Assembly: GCF_003334255.1 (NCBI RefSeq)
Contig: NZ_QOWU01000008.1
Source: Escherichia coli
GTDB lineage: Bacteria; Pseudomonadota; Gammaproteobacteria; Enterobacterales; Enterobacteriaceae
Strand: one strand, 5' to 3'
Length of the DNA: 64,000 bases
In this document: positions 12,650 through 51,743 of the stretch, in pieces
Layout of the letters: the number at the start of each line of letters is the position of its first letter
Numbering within the stretch: the stretch's first letter is position 1
The notes under the pieces: generated by a model
Told to the model about the DNA's origin: nothing
Database searches by the model: none
What the model saw: only the letters and a program-made list of their open reading frames with translations
Position numbers and translations under genes: made by a program

Positions 12650-12717
12650 TTTGTCATTAAAACAATAGGTTATATTGTTTTAAGGTGGATGATTAAAGCA
12701 TCTGCCAGCCATAAAAA

Positions 12718-15456: not shown

Positions 15457-15921
15457 ATGGAAAAGAAATTACCCCGCATTAAAGCGCTGCTAACCCCCGG
15501 CGAAGTGGCGAAACGCAGCGGTGTGGCGGTATCGGCGCTGCATTTCTATGAAAGTAAAGGGTTGATTACCAGTATCCGTAACAGCGGCAATCAGCGGCGA
15601 TATAAACGTGATGTGTTGCGATATGTTGCAATTATCAAAATTGCTCAGCGTATTGGCATTCCGCTGGCGACCATTGGTGAAGCGTTTGGCGTGTTGCCCG
15701 AAGGGCATACGTTAAGTGCGAAAGAGTGGAAACAGCTTTCGTCCCAATGGCGAGAAGAGTTGGATCGGCGCATTCATACCTTAGTGGCGCTGCGTGACGA
15801 ACTGGACGGATGTATTGGTTGTGGCTGCCTTTCGCGCAGTGATTGCCCGTTGCGTAACCCGGGCGACCGCTTAGGAGAAGAAGGTACCGGCGCACGCTTG
15901 CTGGAAGATGAACAAAACTAA
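15457..15921 (+). CDS. soxR: MerR-family redox sensor SoxR with [2Fe-2S] cluster (154 aa)
   Basis: MerR-type HTH N-terminus and C-terminal [12 protein letters not shown] cysteine cluster. Confidence 0.95.
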
Positions 15922-16054
15922 AGCGCCACAAGGGCGCTTTAGTTTGTTTTCCGGTCTTTGTCTTTCTCTCTATCCCGCTGGTACACAGGAGGGTTTCCCC
16001 CGACGTCAACACACCTCATTCGAGCACGTGGTGGAGGTTCCGGTTGGTGTTGAT
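15915..16054 (-). ncRNA. ryjA: candidate small RNA RyjA/SraL, convergent with soxR
   Basis: Placed from recollection that K-12 carries this sRNA just 3' of soxR on the opposite strand, sharing the terminator hairpin; not verifiable from sequence alone. Confidence 0.35.
15921..15950. terminator. hairpin at the soxR 3' end (AAAGCGCCacaaGGGCGCTTT), likely bidirectional
   Basis: Inverted repeat overlapping the soxR stop, followed by a T-rich tract. Confidence 0.7.
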
Positions 16055-37293: not shown

Positions 37294-37309
37294 TGCATCT
37301 TTTATGCCA
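37294..37309 (-). promoter_or_regulatory. sigma54 (-24/-12) promoter of fdhF: TGGCAT-N5-ATGCA
   Basis: Reverse complement of 37294..37309 is TGGCATAAAAGATGCA, about 50 bp upstream of the fdhF ATG; inverted TGACGAAA-type motifs at 37360..37410 are a candidate FhlA UAS. Confidence 0.7.
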
Positions 37310-37439
37310 CATTTTATGTGGGGTCATTCCCTGATATTACGGGCACTATTTATTCAAAACTCTGACGAAAAACAGGCTGTCGTCAGTTTTGACGTGACGA
37401 AACGAAATACCGCGTGACAGCCATCACGCGGCAGACATT

Positions 37440-42450: not shown

Positions 42451-42478
42451 CTTTTGGGGGCTTCAGCGCCCCCAAAAG
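42451..42478 (-). terminator. hairpin downstream of yjcS
   Basis: CTTTTGGGGGcttcagcgCCCCCAAAAG inverted repeat about 10 bp after the yjcS stop. Confidence 0.65.
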
Positions 42479-42487
42479 CGAGTGACA

Positions 42488-44473
42488 TTAATTTGGGGTT
42501 ACGATATTCACCCACAAATCGAAATTATCCAGACAGGCGATAATTTCTTCCAGTTTCGCGCCATTGCCAATAATTTTGGCTTTCTTCGCTTTTACCAGAT
42601 CCGCCATTTTGGCTTGTCCGGTCAGCACGGCGTGCAGATCTTCACGGCTGATGTAGAAAGAGGCGTCGGCTTGCGGTTGCAGCGTTTTCCGGTAGTTAAG
42701 CACGCTATCGTTCAGCGTCAGGTTGAGGTTATCGCCGTTGCTCATATTGAAGTTCAGGCTGATATTTTTACCCGCAGCTTTCGCGCTATCGAGGCGAACG
42801 GCCATAAAGTCGAACAGCATTTCGACCGACATCCCGCGAATGGTGTCCGGGGAACCGGTGGTGCCGTGGCTGAACTTATGCACCCCTTCGCGCAGCTCTT
42901 TCGCGCCGGTCAGGTAGAAACCGCGCCATGTGGCGGACTCGGCCTGATAGCCCAGCTGTTCAAAGTTATTCGCTTGCAGATTCTTCGCGACCTGGTCACC
43001 CGGGTTGGCGGCAATCACCTGTTTCAGCAGTTCTGCCGACCAGCGGTAATCACCTTGCTTGTTCGCTTCTTGCGCCAGGTTGATGACACGGGCAGAACCG
43101 CCCAGCGCCTGCACGTAACGTTTACCCATCTCCACCTGACCATACGGATGCAGGTTAGCCGGGTTACCGTCGTAATAGCCAAGATAGAAGTTATACACCG
43201 CGCGGGCGTTGTGGCTGACAGAACCGTAATAGCCGCGGCTGGCCCAGTTATTGGCAAGTGCAGGCGGCAGCTTAATCATGTCGCCGATTTCATTCATGGT
43301 GTAGCCCTGGTTCGCCAGGTGCAGGGTCTGGTCGTGAATGTACTTGATGGTATCGCGGTATTTACCAATATAATCATTGATATGCTTATTGCCCCAGACC
43401 GGCCAGGTGTGCGGCATAAACAGCACTTCCGCGTCGTTACCCCACATATCCAGCGTTTCGTTCAGATACTCGGTCCACTTGCTGGTGTCGCGGGTTTTCG
43501 CGCCGCGCAGAGTGTAGAAGTTGTGCAGGGTATGCGTGGCGTTCTCGGCGGTACACAGGGCTTTCAGGGCCGGAATATAGAAGTGCATTTCGGCTGGCGC
43601 TTCGCTACCTGGGGTCATCAGGAAGTCAAACTCCAGGCCGTCGATAATCATCTTCTCGCCAGTTCTGACGATAGTTTTCGTCGGTGCAATAATGCTCGGG
43701 TCGCCCGTTGCCAGCGTCACGCCAAGGCCATTACCCACATTGCCTTGCGCGTTGTGCGGCAGTAACAGACCGTAAGAGTAGAGCGCACGGCGGCTCATGA
43801 TGTTACCCGCCAGCACGTTTTCGCTGATGGCTTCGTCCATAAAGCCTGCAGGGGCAATCACCTGAACTTTGCCGGATTTAACATCGGCTTCAGAGATAAT
43901 GCCTTTCACGCCACCATAGTGGTCGGTGTGGCTGTGAGTGTAGATAACGGCAACAATCGATTTTTGCGGACGATGCTGGAAGTAAAGGTCAAGTGCGGCT
44001 TTTGCGGCAGGCGGCGTCACCAGCGGGTCGATAACAATAATGCCTTTCTCGCCCTCAACGAACGTAATGTTAGAGATATCCTGGCCGCGCACCTGATACA
44101 TTTTATCGGTGACTTTGAACAGGCCAGAAATACCGTTGATTTGCGACTGACGCCACAGGCTGGGGTTTACGGTTTCCGGCGCTGCGGCATTAATATCAAA
44201 TTTGTAATCGTCCGCGCGGTAGTAAACTTTACCGTTCGCATCACGCAGAATACCTTCATCCAGCAGCGGGGCGATAAATCCACGCTGGGCATCGTCAAAA
44301 TCCTGACGATCGCTAAACGGTAATGATTTGGCGTAATTCTGATTAACCTGTTGGGTATATTGAGTGGCGGCTTTCGCTTCCTCTTTCGCGTTAGCGGTAT
44401 TTACCATCATGCCGCTGGCGGCAGTTAACGCAATAACAATCCTGCTCAAACGGAATAACCGAGAGTTATTCAT
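42488..44473 (-). CDS. yjcS: secreted alkyl/aryl-sulfatase, metallo-beta-lactamase fold (661 aa)
   Basis: Signal peptide; HxHxDH metal motif ([11 protein letters not shown]); C-terminal SCP2-like domain. Confidence 0.85.
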
Positions 44474-44745
44474 ATAAATCTCCATTTATCATTTATGTCG
44501 TAAATATGTAATCCATGCAAAATACGTCATTTAAAGCTGGCGTTATCATAATTGGGAAATTGCGACTTTAATAAGTGGAAGTGTGAGCGGAACGCGCCAT
44601 TTTATTAGGCATTTGTGCTGAAGAGGGAAAATTACAGTAAAACTATCATTGCAGAAAATAATATGAGTCGTTTTATGTGTTTATTATATATATTGTACCT
44701 GTCGTTGGCACAGCGGGACATTGCGCTACTGTGCCAACGTTTTAC

Positions 44746-46354
<1,609 letters not shown>

Positions 46355-46364
46355 GTTCAATTCC

Positions 46365-47345
46365 TTACTTACTGATAAGACGGTCAAGGGCGACAGCCGC
46401 GATAATTAATCCGCCCATCACCACCAGTTGGTAATAGGTTTGTACCTGCAAAATATTCAGACCGTTGTTGATGGTGCCGATGATCAACCCGCCAATCACC
46501 ACAGAGAAAATGCGCCCCTTGCCGCCGAAGAAACTGGTGCCGCCAATGATGGCGCTGGCAATGGCATAGGTTTCAAAACCCATACCGGCAAGCGGTTCTG
46601 CGGCACCGAGTCGTGCAGTTGAGACGACGCCTGCCAGACCTGCACAAACACCGGAGATGATAAACACCACCAGGATGTGGAATTTCACGTCAATCCCGGA
46701 ATAGAACGCCGAATTTTTGTTGCCGCCCAGTGCGTAGATGTTGCGCCCGAGCCGCATACGCGTTGTCAGAAACCAAAGGATGAGCGCGACAATTAGTGAG
46801 AAGATAACGGGGACAGGTATCCCAATTACGCTGGCGGCAAAGAAGTTCACGAAGTCAAATGAGAAGCCGTATACCGAGTTGGCATCGGAGATCACCAGCG
46901 TGATCCCACGGAAAATCGCGTTGGTGCCAAGGGTGATGATGAACGGGTGTAGCCCCGTCCAGTTGACCAGGCAGCCGTTGATCGCCCCCAGTGCGCCGCC
47001 AACCAGTACACCGCCAATCATCGCTGCGAGAAACGGGTCAACACCTGCCAACATCAGTTTGGCGGTCACCATACCGGAAAGCGCCAGAATCGCGCCAACC
47101 GAGAGGTCGATACCAGCGACCAGGATAGCGAAAAACTCGCCCATGCCGATCAATACCGTCACGGAGCTTTGAACAAAAATCTGGGTAATATTATTGGTGG
47201 TCAGAAAATATTCTGGTGACAGCGAACCAAAGATGGCGACGATGATCGCCAGGATAAAAAAGGTGCCGTATTTATCCCAGAACAGCGCAAAGTTGAACGG
47301 TTTCTTCTCGCTCGCTTCGCTTTTTACTCTTGTGGTAAAGCCCAT
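46365..47345 (-). CDS. alsC: D-allose ABC transporter permease (326 aa)
   Basis: Ribose-type ABC permease topology. Confidence 0.9.
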   Translation of the reverse strand: MGFTTRVKSEASEKKPFNFALFWDKYGTFFILAIIVAIFGSLSPEYFLTTNNITQIFVQSSVTVLIGMGEFFAILVAGIDLSVGAILALSGMVTAKLMLAGVDPFLAAMIGGVLVGGALGAINGCLVNWTGLHPFIITLGTNAIFRGITLVISDANSVYGFSFDFVNFFAASVIGIPVPVIFSLIVALILWFLTTRMRLGRNIYALGGNKNSAFYSGIDVKFHILVVFIISGVCAGLAGVVSTARLGAAEPLAGMGFETYAIASAIIGGTSFFGGKGRIFSVVIGGLIIGTINNGLNILQVQTYYQLVVMGGLIIAAVALDRLISK

Positions 47346-48856
47346 GCCATAATCTCCTCTTCGCTCATGTCATCGCGATTCGTCAGGATTTGCGTCAGTC
47401 GTCCTTCGCAGAACACGGCGATGCGGTCGCAGACGGTGATAATTTCAGGTAGTTCAGATGACACCATCAGGATGACTTTTCCGTCGTCCGCCAGTTGGCG
47501 CATCACTTTGTAAATTTCGGCTTTCGCGCCAACGTCGATGCCGCGGGTAGGTTCATCGAAAATAATCACTTCCGGGCAACAGCACAGCCATTTGGAGATC
47601 AGGACTTTCTGCTGATTTCCCCCGGAGAGTTCGGTGATATTCTGGTTTACCGAATGACATTTCAGCGCCAGCAGTTCGCGTTGATTTTCAGCGGTACGTT
47701 GCTCGTCAACTTCATGAAACAAGCCCATCGCGCCTTTATAGCCGCCGTCTTTCAGACTGCGGCTGATCGCCATGTTCTGAGCGATGGAAAAGTTGGGGAA
47801 AAAACCGTTATCCCGGCGGCTTTCAGTGATGTAAGCCATCCCTTTTTTCACGGCATCCAGGGGTGAACGTGGAGAGATATCTTTGCCATTAAGACGGATT
47901 TCTCCGCCAGCGCGTTTATCCACGCCAAACAGACAATTCATCAGTTCAGTACGTCCGGAACCGACCAGTCCGGCAAAGCCTAATATTTCTCCCCGGCAGA
48001 CGCTAAATGAGATATCCCGGACCTTTTTTCTGTCACGACTGGTGACGTTCCGCACCTCAAAAACCGTTTCGTGCGCAAGGTTGCTGACATTCTCCTTCAT
48101 CGCGTTAAAACGGTTTTGCAGTTCGCGGCCTACCATCAGACGGACGATATCGTCATTTGACACATCGCTTACTATGCCGCTGCAAACGCTGCTGCCGTCT
48201 TTCATCACCGTATAGCGGTCGCAAATACGGCGAATTTCCGCCAACTTATGCGAGATATAGACGATGGCCGTACCCTCTTTACGCAACTGATTCATGATCA
48301 GAAACAGATAGTCCACCTCTTTATTGGTGAGTGAGGAGGTGGGTTCATCCATGATGATGACTTTGGCATCGAGCATCAGCGTTTTGGCAATTTCTAGCAT
48401 CTGCTTGTGGCTGATAGATAAATTCGCCACTTTCTCATCTAGATCAACTTTCAAGCCCACGCGTAATAACATCATGGCGGCGCGGACACGCATTTCTCGC
48501 CAGTCGATAATATTGACGCCACAGATTTTTTTCGTCAGATGACGACCAATATATAAATTTTCCAGTACGGTTAATTCATCAATAACGCTGAGTTCCTGAT
48601 AAATAATCCCGATACCGAGTTGTGCCGCTAATTTATGATCCAGCTTGTTATAGCTAATGTTATTAATGGTAATGGTGCCTTTGGTCGGCTCATGTATTCC
48701 GGATAAAACTTTCATTAGCGTGGATTTACCCGCGCCATTTTCTCCTAGTAATGCATGTATTTCACCAGGATAAACCGTTAAATTAACCGACTTTAATGCG
48801 TGAACCGGACCAAAGGACTTGCCGATCCCCGCCATCGATATATATGGCGTGGCCAT
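47324..48856 (-). CDS. alsA: D-allose ABC transporter ATP-binding protein, duplicated ABC domains (510 aa)
   Basis: Two nucleotide-binding domains (GENGAGKST Walker A, LSGGNQQK signature). Confidence 0.92.
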   Translation of the reverse strand: MATPYISMAGIGKSFGPVHALKSVNLTVYPGEIHALLGENGAGKSTLMKVLSGIHEPTKGTITINNISYNKLDHKLAAQLGIGIIYQELSVIDELTVLENLYIGRHLTKKICGVNIIDWREMRVRAAMMLLRVGLKVDLDEKVANLSISHKQMLEIAKTLMLDAKVIIMDEPTSSLTNKEVDYLFLIMNQLRKEGTAIVYISHKLAEIRRICDRYTVMKDGSSVCSGIVSDVSNDDIVRLMVGRELQNRFNAMKENVSNLAHETVFEVRNVTSRDRKKVRDISFSVCRGEILGFAGLVGSGRTELMNCLFGVDKRAGGEIRLNGKDISPRSPLDAVKKGMAYITESRRDNGFFPNFSIAQNMAISRSLKDGGYKGAMGLFHEVDEQRTAENQRELLALKCHSVNQNITELSGGNQQKVLISKWLCCCPEVIIFDEPTRGIDVGAKAEIYKVMRQLADDGKVILMVSSELPEIITVCDRIAVFCEGRLTQILTNRDDMSEEEIMAWALPQE

Positions 48857-48888
48857 AAATAACCTCTCTGCACGAAATATCGTATTAT

Positions 48889-48973
48889 TGCCTGATGGCT
48901 ACATTTATCAGGTCTACGTTCAGGTTATTTTGTTGGCCGGATAAGACACTTCATTAGCATCATCATCCGGCAT
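48889..48973. repeat. degenerate REP-like palindromic element in the alsA-alsB spacer
   Basis: GCCTGATGGC...TCAGGTCTAC and GCCGGATAAGACACT...CATCCGGCATC resemble diverged REP units. Confidence 0.5.
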
Positions 48974-48982
48974 CATTCAGTT

Positions 48983-49918
48983 TTATTGAGTGACCAGGAT
49001 TGAATCGACCAGTTTAAATTCCGGTGCTTTATCCAGCGGGATAACCTTGCCGGATTTCTCAGCGTCAACCATCAGCTTCAGACCCGTTGCGCCGATATCC
49101 GCCGGGTTCTGGGCAACCGTCGCGGTCATTTGTCCGGCTTCCACCATTTTGCGGGCTTCCGGAATGCCATCTGTACCGACGACCAGCACTTTTCCCGTTT
49201 TTCCGGCGTTTGCGACTGCCTGAGCAACACCCATTGCCATCGTGTCATTCGCGCAATAGATCGCTTTAATATTCGGATTACGTTGCAACACGTTAGTGGC
49301 GACATCCAGTGCTTTAATGCGGTCCCAGTCGGCAGGCTGGCTGGCGACAAGCTTGATCTGGCTTGCTTTTTTGAAGGCTTCGGTGGCACCATTACGACGC
49401 GCTTCACCGGAGGCGTTACCGGCTTTACCCTCAATGATTGCGACTTCACCACCTTCAGCGCCCAATTTGTCAATAATGAACGACGCGCCTTTCGCCCCGA
49501 CAGCAACGTTATCGGTGGTGACAAAAGCTTCCACATTGCCGCCAGCTTTTTTCAGATTATCCATGTCGATTTTTTCATCGAGATTAACCAGATAAATGCC
49601 TTTTTTCCATGCGCGGGCGACAGGCATGACCAGATTCACTGAGGATAATGGAGCGAAGGCGATACCTTTGTAATTTTTATTACTGAGATCTTCAAATAAC
49701 TGCAATTGAGATTGAAAATCGCCTTCTGAAGGAGAGGCAAAAATATCAACGCTGACGCCCAGTGTTTTTGCTTCATCTTCAATGCCTTTTTTCATATCTA
49801 CCCAAAATGGGTTGGAGAGGGTTTTCAATACGACAGCATATTCGGCGGCAGCAAAAGCGCTGGTTGACAACATTAAGCCCACGAGTGTGCCGCTGAAATA
49901 TTTCAGATATTTATTCAT
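48983..49918 (-). CDS. alsB: periplasmic D-allose-binding protein (311 aa)
   Basis: Signal peptide and ribose-binding-protein-like fold. Confidence 0.9.
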   Translation of the reverse strand: MNKYLKYFSGTLVGLMLSTSAFAAAEYAVVLKTLSNPFWVDMKKGIEDEAKTLGVSVDIFASPSEGDFQSQLQLFEDLSNKNYKGIAFAPLSSVNLVMPVARAWKKGIYLVNLDEKIDMDNLKKAGGNVEAFVTTDNVAVGAKGASFIIDKLGAEGGEVAIIEGKAGNASGEARRNGATEAFKKASQIKLVASQPADWDRIKALDVATNVLQRNPNIKAIYCANDTMAMGVAQAVANAGKTGKVLVVGTDGIPEARKMVEAGQMTATVAQNPADIGATGLKLMVDAEKSGKVIPLDKAPEFKLVDSILVTQ

Positions 49919-49976
49919 AATAATGTTCTCACGGTAAGGGGACAGGTAACTCCGCGATGGCGGAATTACCTTTTTC

Positions 49977-50867
49977 TTATTTCAGCGCGCCTGGTGAGAA
50001 GAAATCAACAATTGCGCCGGTTTTTTGCATATTAATATTAGCTTGTTCAATGTTGAGCTGGGCGACAGAGACAAAAAAAGCGTCCAGCAAAGTTAGTTGT
50101 AATATTCTTGCCGAGGCATTACGACCTAATAACGGCGTTTCCGGGGCTGGTGAGCAAATAATATAATCGGCCAGTTTCGCTATCGGTGAATGGTAGCTAT
50201 GGGTTATACAAATAATCTTTGCCCCGTTCTTTTTTGCCAGTTCTACGGCCGCTTTTACATCACTGGTTCGCCCGGAATGGGTCACTACCAGCACAACATC
50301 TCCTTCCTGTAACAACGAAGCGGACATCATCATGATGTGAGCATCAGGATAGGCCTGACAGCGTACGCCAATGCGCAAGAACTTGTGCTGTACATCAGCA
50401 CAGATAGCATTTGATCCTCCGGCACCGTACAAATCCCGCTGTCTGGCCTGATAGAAAAAGCGGGCGGCACGGTGGATCTCATCAACGTTGACGATCGACT
50501 GACCTTCCATAATGGTGCGTAAAGTGATGTTAAATACCTTATTCACCACATCCTGCGGCGCTTCATCAAAAGCCAACTCGGAAGGCAATACCTGTTCTGA
50601 CTGAGAAAAATAATCTTCCAGCGCACTGCGTAAGTTACGAAAGCCGCTAAACCCCAGCAGCTTTGATACCTTAACTATCATCGCTTCAGATACCGCCAGA
50701 GCTTCTGCGACATCTTTAATTGCGGGTGCACAACTCAGGTTACCGGGTTTGAGTAACCACTCCACGATGCGGCTTTCATTTTCTGTCATTCCTTCCTGCT
50801 TCATTCGCAGGTAAGGCGCTAACCCTATACCGTTCGGAAGCGCTGAATCAAACTCTGACTGGCTCAT
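49977..50867 (-). CDS. rpiR: RpiR/AlsR transcriptional repressor, HTH plus SIS domain (296 aa)
   Basis: ORF 49977..50900 trimmed to MSQSEFDSALPNGIG...; RpiR-type HTH then sugar-isomerase (SIS) domain. Confidence 0.85.
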   Translation of the reverse strand: MSQSEFDSALPNGIGLAPYLRMKQEGMTENESRIVEWLLKPGNLSCAPAIKDVAEALAVSEAMIVKVSKLLGFSGFRNLRSALEDYFSQSEQVLPSELAFDEAPQDVVNKVFNITLRTIMEGQSIVNVDEIHRAARFFYQARQRDLYGAGGSNAICADVQHKFLRIGVRCQAYPDAHIMMMSASLLQEGDVVLVVTHSGRTSDVKAAVELAKKNGAKIICITHSYHSPIAKLADYIICSPAPETPLLGRNASARILQLTLLDAFFVSVAQLNIEQANINMQKTGAIVDFFSPGALK

Positions 50868-51225
50868 CACGTTCTCTTGTCCTTGAATTGAAGACGCCAC
50901 TATATCACCACAGCAAGAACAGAAAAGATGCTGGCGACTTCACAAAAAAATAAAATTTATAAAGTTTATTTTATTGTGAACAATGGCGAGTGGCTTAAAA
51001 TTTTATTTCATTTAATTAGTTTAAAAACATGATGTTATTTGTTTTTCTGGTTTTTTAGATGATAGATGTTGCTGGATGGTGAGTGTCTTTAACGCTATTG
51101 CGCTGTCAGATGTAACTCTGTAAAACAGATCAGGAAGGCGTAATTCATCGATTTTGGGTGTTTTTAATTCATTAACATCACAAATGTTTTTTGATTGTGA
51201 AGTTTTGCACGGACGGGGAAGATGA

Positions 51226-51675
51226 ATGAAAAAGATTGCATTTGGCTGTGATCATGTCGGTTTCATTTTAAAACATGAAATAGTGGCACATTTAGTTGAG
51301 CGTGGCGTTGAAGTGATTGATAAAGGAACCTGGTCGTCAGAGCGTACTGATTATCCACATTACGCCAGTCAAGTCGCACTGGCTGTTGCTGGCGGAGAGG
51401 TTGATGGCGGGATTTTGATTTGTGGTACTGGCGTCGGTATTTCGATAGCGGCGAACAAGTTTGCCGGAATTCGCGCGGTCGTCTGTAGCGAACCTTATTC
51501 CGCGCAACTTTCGCGGCAGCATAACGACACCAACGTGCTGGCTTTTGGTTCACGAGTGGTTGGCCTCGAACTGGCAAAAATGATTGTGGATGCGTGGCTG
51601 GGCGCACAGTACGAAGGCGGTCGTCATCAACAACGCGTGGAGGCGATTACGGCAATAGAGCAGCGGAGAAATTGA
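51226..51675 (+). CDS. rpiB: ribose-5-phosphate isomerase B / allose-6-phosphate isomerase (149 aa)
   Basis: RpiB/LacAB family (MKKIAFGCDHVGF..., CGTGVGISIAANK); divergent from rpiR. Confidence 0.92.
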   Translation: MKKIAFGCDHVGFILKHEIVAHLVERGVEVIDKGTWSSERTDYPHYASQVALAVAGGEVDGGILICGTGVGISIAANKFAGIRAVVCSEPYSAQLSRQHNDTNVLAFGSRVVGLELAKMIVDAWLGAQYEGGRHQQRVEAITAIEQRRN

Positions 51676-51743
51676 GATTCATCCACTACTTGCATGGATG
51701 AGTAATGATTAATGTGGATAGAGTTTCTTTTTGAGGCTGGCTA

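Follow-up and report, generated by a model that had tools for sequence, protein, structure and literature searches.

The window analysed here is a stretch of 64,000 nucleotides of Escherichia coli DNA. It is K-12-like, and its positions are converted to NC_000913.3 coordinates by adding 4,262,124. According to the list of open reading frames and the RefSeq annotation of an identical E. coli sequence, alsK occupies 44746-45675 on the minus strand with its TGA stop codon at 44748-44746, and the ATG of yjcS lies at 44473, also on the minus strand. The als operon ends with alsK, which shares 17 nt with alsE. A repeat search identified a perfect inverted repeat between alsK and yjcS, whose 11-bp arms, CGTTGGCACAG (44703-44713) and CTGTGCCAACG (44729-44739), are 100% complementary. 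An earlier note, made from the sequence alone, had correctly described an 11-bp stem directly after the alsK stop codon and upstream of yjcS. However, the loop comprises 15 nt rather than the 14 nt given there, and the repeat ends at 44739 rather than at 44738. Along the als mRNA, the UGA stop codon is followed by GUAAAA (6 nt), the hairpin, a spacer of 229 nt and the ATG of yjcS. The features of the region are listed below.

44740..44748, minus strand: alsK stop codon UGA (44748-44746) and the 6-nt A-rich spacer GUAAAA before the stem
44729..44739, minus strand: 5' arm of the hairpin in the als mRNA, CGUUGGCACAG, a perfect 11-nt arm
44714..44728, minus strand: hairpin loop, UAGCGCAAUGUCCCG, 15 nt, whose outermost U.G is able to make a 12th pair
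44703..44713, minus strand: 3' arm of the hairpin in the als mRNA, CUGUGCCAACG, containing the -35-like hexamer GTGCCA (44711-44706)
44683..44711, minus strand: sigma-70-like promoter match towards yjcS (GTGCCA, 17 nt, TATAAT), with 10 of 12 matches in a consensus scan
44474..44702, minus strand: AT-rich untranslated spacer with more C than G from the hairpin to the yjcS ATG, a candidate region for Rho loading and termination

The folding energy of the RNA, which the earlier note had named as a check, agrees with a stable hairpin. The als-sense RNA folds with -21.1 kcal/mol (z -3.30), a value that 2 of 200 shuffles reached, and the plus-strand RNA folds with -20.6 kcal/mol (z -2.54). Perfect inverted repeats of at least 11 bp with loops of 3-20 nt are themselves scarce by chance: the 64-kb window contains five distinct ones, compared with a mean of 0.31 per dinucleotide shuffle, which is an enrichment of about 15-fold. 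Of the remaining four, two have U-runs and are canonical terminators, at 15915-15945 and at 42451-42478, just after yjcS. The alsK hairpin is a member of this enriched, mostly functional class and is located exactly at the end of an operon.

The repeat at 42451-42478 is a canonical intrinsic terminator 10 nt past the yjcS stop codon (CTTTTGGGGGC...GCCCCCAAAAG), and the U-run that comes after it on the minus strand sets it apart from the U-less hairpin after alsK. The repeat at 15915-15945 has a perfect 13-bp stem between an A-run and a T-run and looks like a bidirectional terminator. Within the coding sequence of alsK, at 45155-45185, two perfectly complementary arms of 11 bp enclose a loop of 9 nt (TGGGTCATATC TCCCAGGGG GATATGACCCA). 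The perfect repeat at 12657-12683, TTAAAACAATA-GGTTA-TATTGTTTTAA, has arms made up entirely of A and T and is located just past an open reading frame of 199 amino acids, which is probably ssb, judging from its coordinates.

The earlier note proposed that the hairpin could be the terminator of the als operon. Its position after the last gene agrees with this proposal, but on the als-sense strand the hairpin is not a Rho-independent terminator. The stem would be adequate for such a terminator (11 bp, about -20 kcal/mol). However, the 8 nt after the als-sense stem, ACAGGUAC, contain 1 U in 8, a U-tract at this place is absent from all homologues, and the loop of 15 nt exceeds the 3-8 nt that are usual for Rho-independent terminators. 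The terminator scan left the hairpin unreported because of this loop length. Compared with intrinsic terminators in general, the hairpin shares a GC-containing 11-bp stem at an operon end and, on the plus strand, the sequence UUUUACU after the stem, but the gene strand has no U-tract and the loop is about twice as long as the usual maximum.

The plus-strand tail raises the question of termination in the opposite direction. The hairpin could be a Rho-independent terminator of plus-strand RNA, which would stop antisense or spurious transcripts coming from the AT-rich region upstream of yjcS before they enter the als operon. The plus-strand stem is directly followed by UUUUACUC, which has 5 U in 8 in the K-12 type and satisfies the tail rule of the scan. 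A moderately U-rich tail is kept on this strand in all homologues, and the A-tract upstream of the stem in the als-sense direction is a common feature of terminators viewed from the opposite strand. However, the alsK stop codon region limits how the tail can vary, and most E. coli lineages have CUUUACU with at most three consecutive U. The loop is outside the usual range in this direction as well, no promoter-like plus-strand site was found upstream in the scan, and the Term-seq lists of Adams 2021 contain no plus-strand 3' end at 43068xx. Moreover, the substitutions observed in divergent lineages weaken the plus-strand helix by 3-4 kcal/mol. We regard a plus-strand terminator as very unlikely.

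The reading that we prefer assigns the hairpin to the 3' end of the als mRNA without a U-tract. Dar & Sorek (NAR 2018) reported that Rho-dependent transcripts end just past stable stem-loops without U-runs, with an enrichment of C over G downstream, and argued that such stems protect the RNA against PNPase and RNase II. The alsK hairpin is stable, lacks a U-run and closes a transcription unit, and a rut-like bias of C over G is observed just downstream: the als-sense spacer 44486-44702 (217 nt) contains 44 C and 26 G, and its 60-nt windows reach 17 C against 8 G. There is about an even chance, in our estimate, that the hairpin is the 3'-terminal, U-less stem-loop of the alsRBACEK mRNA and works together with Rho-dependent termination in the spacer. 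The palindrome would then work as RNA on the minus (als-sense) strand. RNA polymerase passing alsK would transcribe the hairpin 6 nt beyond the stop codon and then the AT-rich, untranslated spacer of about 230 nt, in which C exceeds G and on which Rho could load and end transcription at scattered sites. The 3'-to-5' exonucleases PNPase and RNase II would remove the tail as far as the foot of the stable helix of 11-12 bp, and this helix would define the mature als 3' end and shield it. The sensitivity of the region to Rho and the general trimming mechanism are taken from the literature, whereas the end of als transcripts at this stem and their stabilisation by it are inferred.

Published data on the inhibition of Rho cover the region. 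Adams 2021 (supplementary file 2, PMC7815308) listed a Rho termination region here with its best position at 4306814 on the minus strand of NC_000913.3, a Rho score of 4.46 and p 6e-9. By coordinate conversion, this position is 44690 of the window, 13 nt past the base of the stem. The reads upstream and downstream, counted in windows 800 nt wide, were 53 and 32 in untreated cells and 75 and 202 with bicyclomycin (Adams 2021, PMC7815308). After bicyclomycin, the downstream reads exceed the upstream reads; therefore, als read-through cannot be the only source of the signal, part of which must come from RNA initiated within the spacer, for example at a yjcS promoter, and the data are ambiguous on als read-through. 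The Term-seq lists of the same study (supplementary file 1) contain no 3' end at 43068xx. The als operon was silent under those conditions, and a 3' end at the stem is not expected because als was not induced in those media.

Like the protective stem-loops of Dar & Sorek, the alsK hairpin is a stable stem-loop just past the last open reading frame, without a U-run and with more C than G downstream, and a published data set suggests that its region may also be sensitive to the inhibition of Rho. It differs from them in its loop, which at 15 nt is longer than typical, and in the A-rich tract before the stem. An A-rich tract at this place is untypical of U-less stem-loops (Dar & Sorek 2018), and it counts against the 3'-end reading. 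The most likely role of the hairpin is to cap the als mRNA and protect its end, which would make it an ordinary feature of a known kind. It would add one more example to this class rather than a new principle. For annotators, it would be relevant that the end of the als operon is set by Rho together with a protective stem-loop and not by an intrinsic terminator. The same arrangement would also bear on how well transcription from a derepressed als promoter is kept out of yjcS and the mdtNOP genes downstream.

The distribution of the hairpin was examined in E. coli and in related species. The hairpin region was found at a single place per genome in 3367 E. coli genomes (E <= 1), with at least 80% coverage in 3366 of them, and all als-positive E. 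coli genomes have the hairpin. The locus from yjcS to yjdP was compared across 5426 complete E. coli genomes and exists in at least three alleles.

Allele A: als operon and hairpin present, 3366 genomes
Allele B: lacks als and the 5' part of rpiB, keeps a diverged hairpin, 1570 genomes
Allele C: other replacements, for example a different sugar operon in O157, remaining genomes

The part of the window from 44700 to 51700, between yjcS and yjdP, is polymorphic (L001, L002, L003). The als-deleted allele leaves an rpiB remnant of 105 amino acids, which PGAP annotates as a gene that runs through the hairpin. In O157-type strains, als is replaced by a different sugar-utilisation operon.

The retention of a diverged hairpin in the 1570 genomes of allele B counts against the reading as a 3'-end stem-loop, since a function in als alone would not require it. 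We also considered the hairpin as the edge of a mobile or deleted island, because homology seemed to stop 4 nt before it in about 2000 genomes. In the alignment, an indel of about 88 nt accounts for this break, and a diverged hairpin is still present in the als-deleted allele; the island edge was rejected. The segment of about 88 nt beside the hairpin is present in allele B and in the als-positive strain 14EC007, and it is missing from the K-12 type (window 44698 to 44703). It is located between the hairpin and the AT-rich region upstream of yjcS (L001 6262-6340; L008 about 2895-2985). The segment holds an inverted repeat of its own, CCGGT...ACCGG in C1 and CCAG...CTGG in 14EC007, which appears to be a compensatory change.

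Outside E. coli, an AlsK-based scan with one genome per species found homologues of the hairpin only in Escherichia L010 and in E. whittamii (L023); in Klebsiella, Citrobacter, Enterobacter and others, the sequence past alsK is unrelated. Further searches of E. coli genomes and a pattern scan of metagenomes returned no new variants of the hairpin. Eight distinct hairpin sequences were aligned on the als-sense strand. Summed over the eight sequences, 96.6% of the stem positions pair, and two of the three that do not are at the terminal pair. RNAalifold independently returned the same helix together with the 12th pair (U.G or C-G). The 5' arm is invariant in four E. coli lineages and carries an A->G change in 14EC007, which produces a G.U pair, while a C->U change in the 3' arm of three divergent Escherichia lineages also produces G.U on the als-sense strand. 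These substitutions affect two stem positions (four sequence positions in total) and represent about two independent events. The only compensatory change, U-A to C-G, is found in the als-deleted allele B, and the covariation of the stem is not significant, since 129 of 500 column shuffles reached the observed score. In L010, L023 and 14EC007, each G.U pair on the als-sense strand corresponds to an A.C mismatch on the plus strand, and the als-sense hairpin is the more stable one by 3-4 kcal/mol. This direction of the substitutions weakly favours a role as RNA on the als-sense strand, as far as can be judged from the aligned sequences.

These comparisons also bear on whether the hairpin has any current function. 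It could be the remnant of an older terminator or a neutral palindrome that is carried along in a young, little-diverged Escherichia locus. The restriction of the homologues to Escherichia, the covariation test, the persistence of a somewhat decayed hairpin in the operon-deleted allele and the reshuffling of the intergenic region between alleles, including the indel that adjoins the hairpin, are all consistent with such a remnant. However, a perfect stem of 11 bp is rare by chance (0.31 per 64 kb), its position is exactly at the operon end, and the observed stem changes preserve pairing on one strand. The stem also varies less than the loop: when the als-deleted allele is excluded, 3 of 22 stem columns and 5 of 15 loop columns are variable, as read by eye from the alignment. 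In addition, the stems are identical in the als-positive lineages sampled (JJ1887, ATCC 25922 and CFSAN061771), although the surrounding intergenic DNA differs by 4-5%. On balance, a hairpin without function is unlikely.

The hairpin was also compared with known families of repeats and structured RNAs. A palindrome after the last gene of a sugar operon, which could block 3' exonucleases, resembles REP/BIME elements. However, the alsK hairpin has no sequence similarity to REP and occurs at one place per genome in the 3367 genomes, with no other copy in the window; its 9-mer is not enriched there, and membership of REP/BIME or another repeat family was rejected. A scan of 44300-45000 against Rfam (E <= 10) gave no match on the hairpin.

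As an alternative to a terminator, the earlier note suggested a protein-binding palindrome in the promoter region of yjcS. The consensus scan placed the -35 element of a candidate yjcS promoter inside the promoter-proximal arm of the hairpin. The AT-rich -10 region of this candidate is conserved across alleles and the context of the -35 element is not. Sigma-70-like sites are no more frequent in the region than in its shuffles, and a search of the Cappable-seq supplement gave no matching transcription start.

The palindrome could be an operator for the allose repressor AlsR (RpiR), with which the earlier note connected it, or for another regulator of yjcS such as SutR. It adjoins the als operon and is located upstream of yjcS, and yjcS is one of the targets listed for SutR in genomic SELEX. 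However, the only genomic SELEX peak of RpiR/AlsR is in the rpiR-rpiB spacer and not here (Shimada 2018, PMC5934670), which leaves an AlsR operator unsupported. The half-sites are 24-26 bp apart from centre to centre, or 2.5 helical turns, an uncommon arrangement for a dimeric operator, and the window contains no second copy of the motif at the als promoter. An operator of this kind is extremely unlikely.

A more specific candidate for binding at the DNA level is sigma-54. Both arms read TTGGCACAG, which is a perfect sigma-54 -24 box and matches the glnA and glmY promoters exactly in their -24 region. The palindrome may act as DNA, with its arms docking the RpoN holoenzyme with the assistance of NtrC; the complex would provide a weak start for yjcS or would block the sigma-70 promoter of yjcS under nitrogen limitation. 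The blocking variant is modelled on the 'repressive promoters' proposed by Shimada et al. 2021 (PMC8743547), and the sigma-70-like -35 element inside one arm is compatible with it. In genomic SELEX, both NtrC alone (43%) and the RpoN holoenzyme with NtrC (41%) gave a peak in the yjcS-alsK spacer, and a gel shift with a probe that corresponds to 44460-44833 of the window confirmed binding (Shimada 2021, PMC8743547). The peak at 4,304,842 in the old MG1655 numbering is located at about position 44695 of the window, 8 nt from the hairpin. This conversion uses the difference of 1,977 bp between the two versions of the MG1655 sequence, and it is consistent with the row for fdhF, which it places in the fdhF-mdtP spacer. 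However, the SELEX coordinates are coarse (about +/-100 bp). The fdhF peak is 81 nt from the true promoter in the same window; therefore, the position of the peak near alsK cannot single out the hairpin.

The arms were scored with a sigma-54 matrix derived from 38 intergenic sites observed in vivo (Bonocora 2015, Table 1). The -24 half of the arms (TGGCAC) scored 10.5 bits compared with a median of 9.8 bits for the in vivo sites. However, there is no -12 GC at the fixed spacing, and the -12 halves scored -11.2 and -16.3 bits: on the minus strand a GC is 1 nt too close, and on the plus strand a TTGC is 4 nt too far. The totals of -0.7 bits (minus strand) and -5.8 bits (plus strand) are far below the 9.6 bits of the weakest of the 38 sites. 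In the window, the top hit of the matrix was the known sigma-54 promoter of fdhF at 37294-37310 on the minus strand, GTGGCATAAAAGATGCA, which served as a positive control. The spacer between yjcS and alsK is absent from the SELEX list for RpoN alone (Shimada 2021, PMC8743547), and neither the text nor the supplements of the sigma-54 ChIP-seq study name a site at alsK or yjcS (Bonocora 2015). The hairpin was rejected as a sigma-54 promoter because it failed the matrix test. The GG on the plus strand is lost in three Escherichia lineages (TTAGCACAG), and by our estimate chance alone would produce about 35 exact copies of the 9-mer per genome.

Other sequences in the gel-shift probe could account for the binding. 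A candidate sigma-54 site with the correct spacing is located on the minus strand at 44816-44800, and a palindrome resembling an NtrC site is located at 44758-44774. The consensus NtrC enhancer is the 17-bp TGCACCA-N3-TGGTGCA. The half-sites of the hairpin are 24-26 bp apart, and the best match in the probe (9 of 14, at 44758-44774) is outside the hairpin; the hairpin does not match an NtrC enhancer. The sigma-54 promoters glnAp2, glmY and rpoH P6 are comparable in that the arms carry the -24 region of glnA and glmY, but the hairpin differs from them in lacking the -12 GC at the invariant spacing, reported in vivo occupancy and a nearby consensus NtrC site. Of the proposal of a protein-binding palindrome, the part that stands is that the spacer binds NtrC, and the RpoN holoenzyme with NtrC, in vitro; the arms themselves fail the sigma-54 matrix and have no ChIP-seq peak. 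We consider it distinctly unlikely that the arms act as sigma-54 docking sites.

The preferred role as a 3'-end stem-loop of the als mRNA may be combined with binding at the DNA level. In a dual use, the palindrome would cap the als mRNA as RNA and would offer spacing-defective sigma-54 docking boxes (TTGGCACAG) as DNA, on which a non-firing holoenzyme would occlude the sigma-70 promoter of the alkyl sulfatase gene yjcS in nitrogen starvation. The prospect of such a combination is slim. If true, it would provide a concrete, sequence-defined example of the 'repressive RpoN promoter' (Shimada et al. 2021). The resemblance of the arms to sigma-54 sites also carries a warning, because a perfect -24 box in a terminator-like palindrome may explain weak SELEX signals that are obtained in vitro without a promoter.

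Two further elements were observed in the 3' end of alsK. The sigma-54-like site at 44800-44816 on the minus strand, ATGGCGCTCAGGGTGCA, has GG and GC at the correct spacing and is directed towards yjcS. It scored 7.5 bits compared with 9.6 bits for the weakest real site, and it is conserved, but it lies within coding sequence. The last codons of alsK (44756-44775) contain a second, imperfect copy of the palindrome (TTAGCACAG-AA-CTGTGGCAA) with a geometry like that of an NtrC site (44758-44774, 9 of 14), which brings the 9-mer of the arms to four copies within 73 bp. An attenuator-like pairing between this copy and the hairpin was rejected, as the copy is not conserved outside E. coli or in other Escherichia lineages. 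In other genera, alsK directly adjoins the upstream activating region of fdhF (CGACACGTCAAAACTGACGA).
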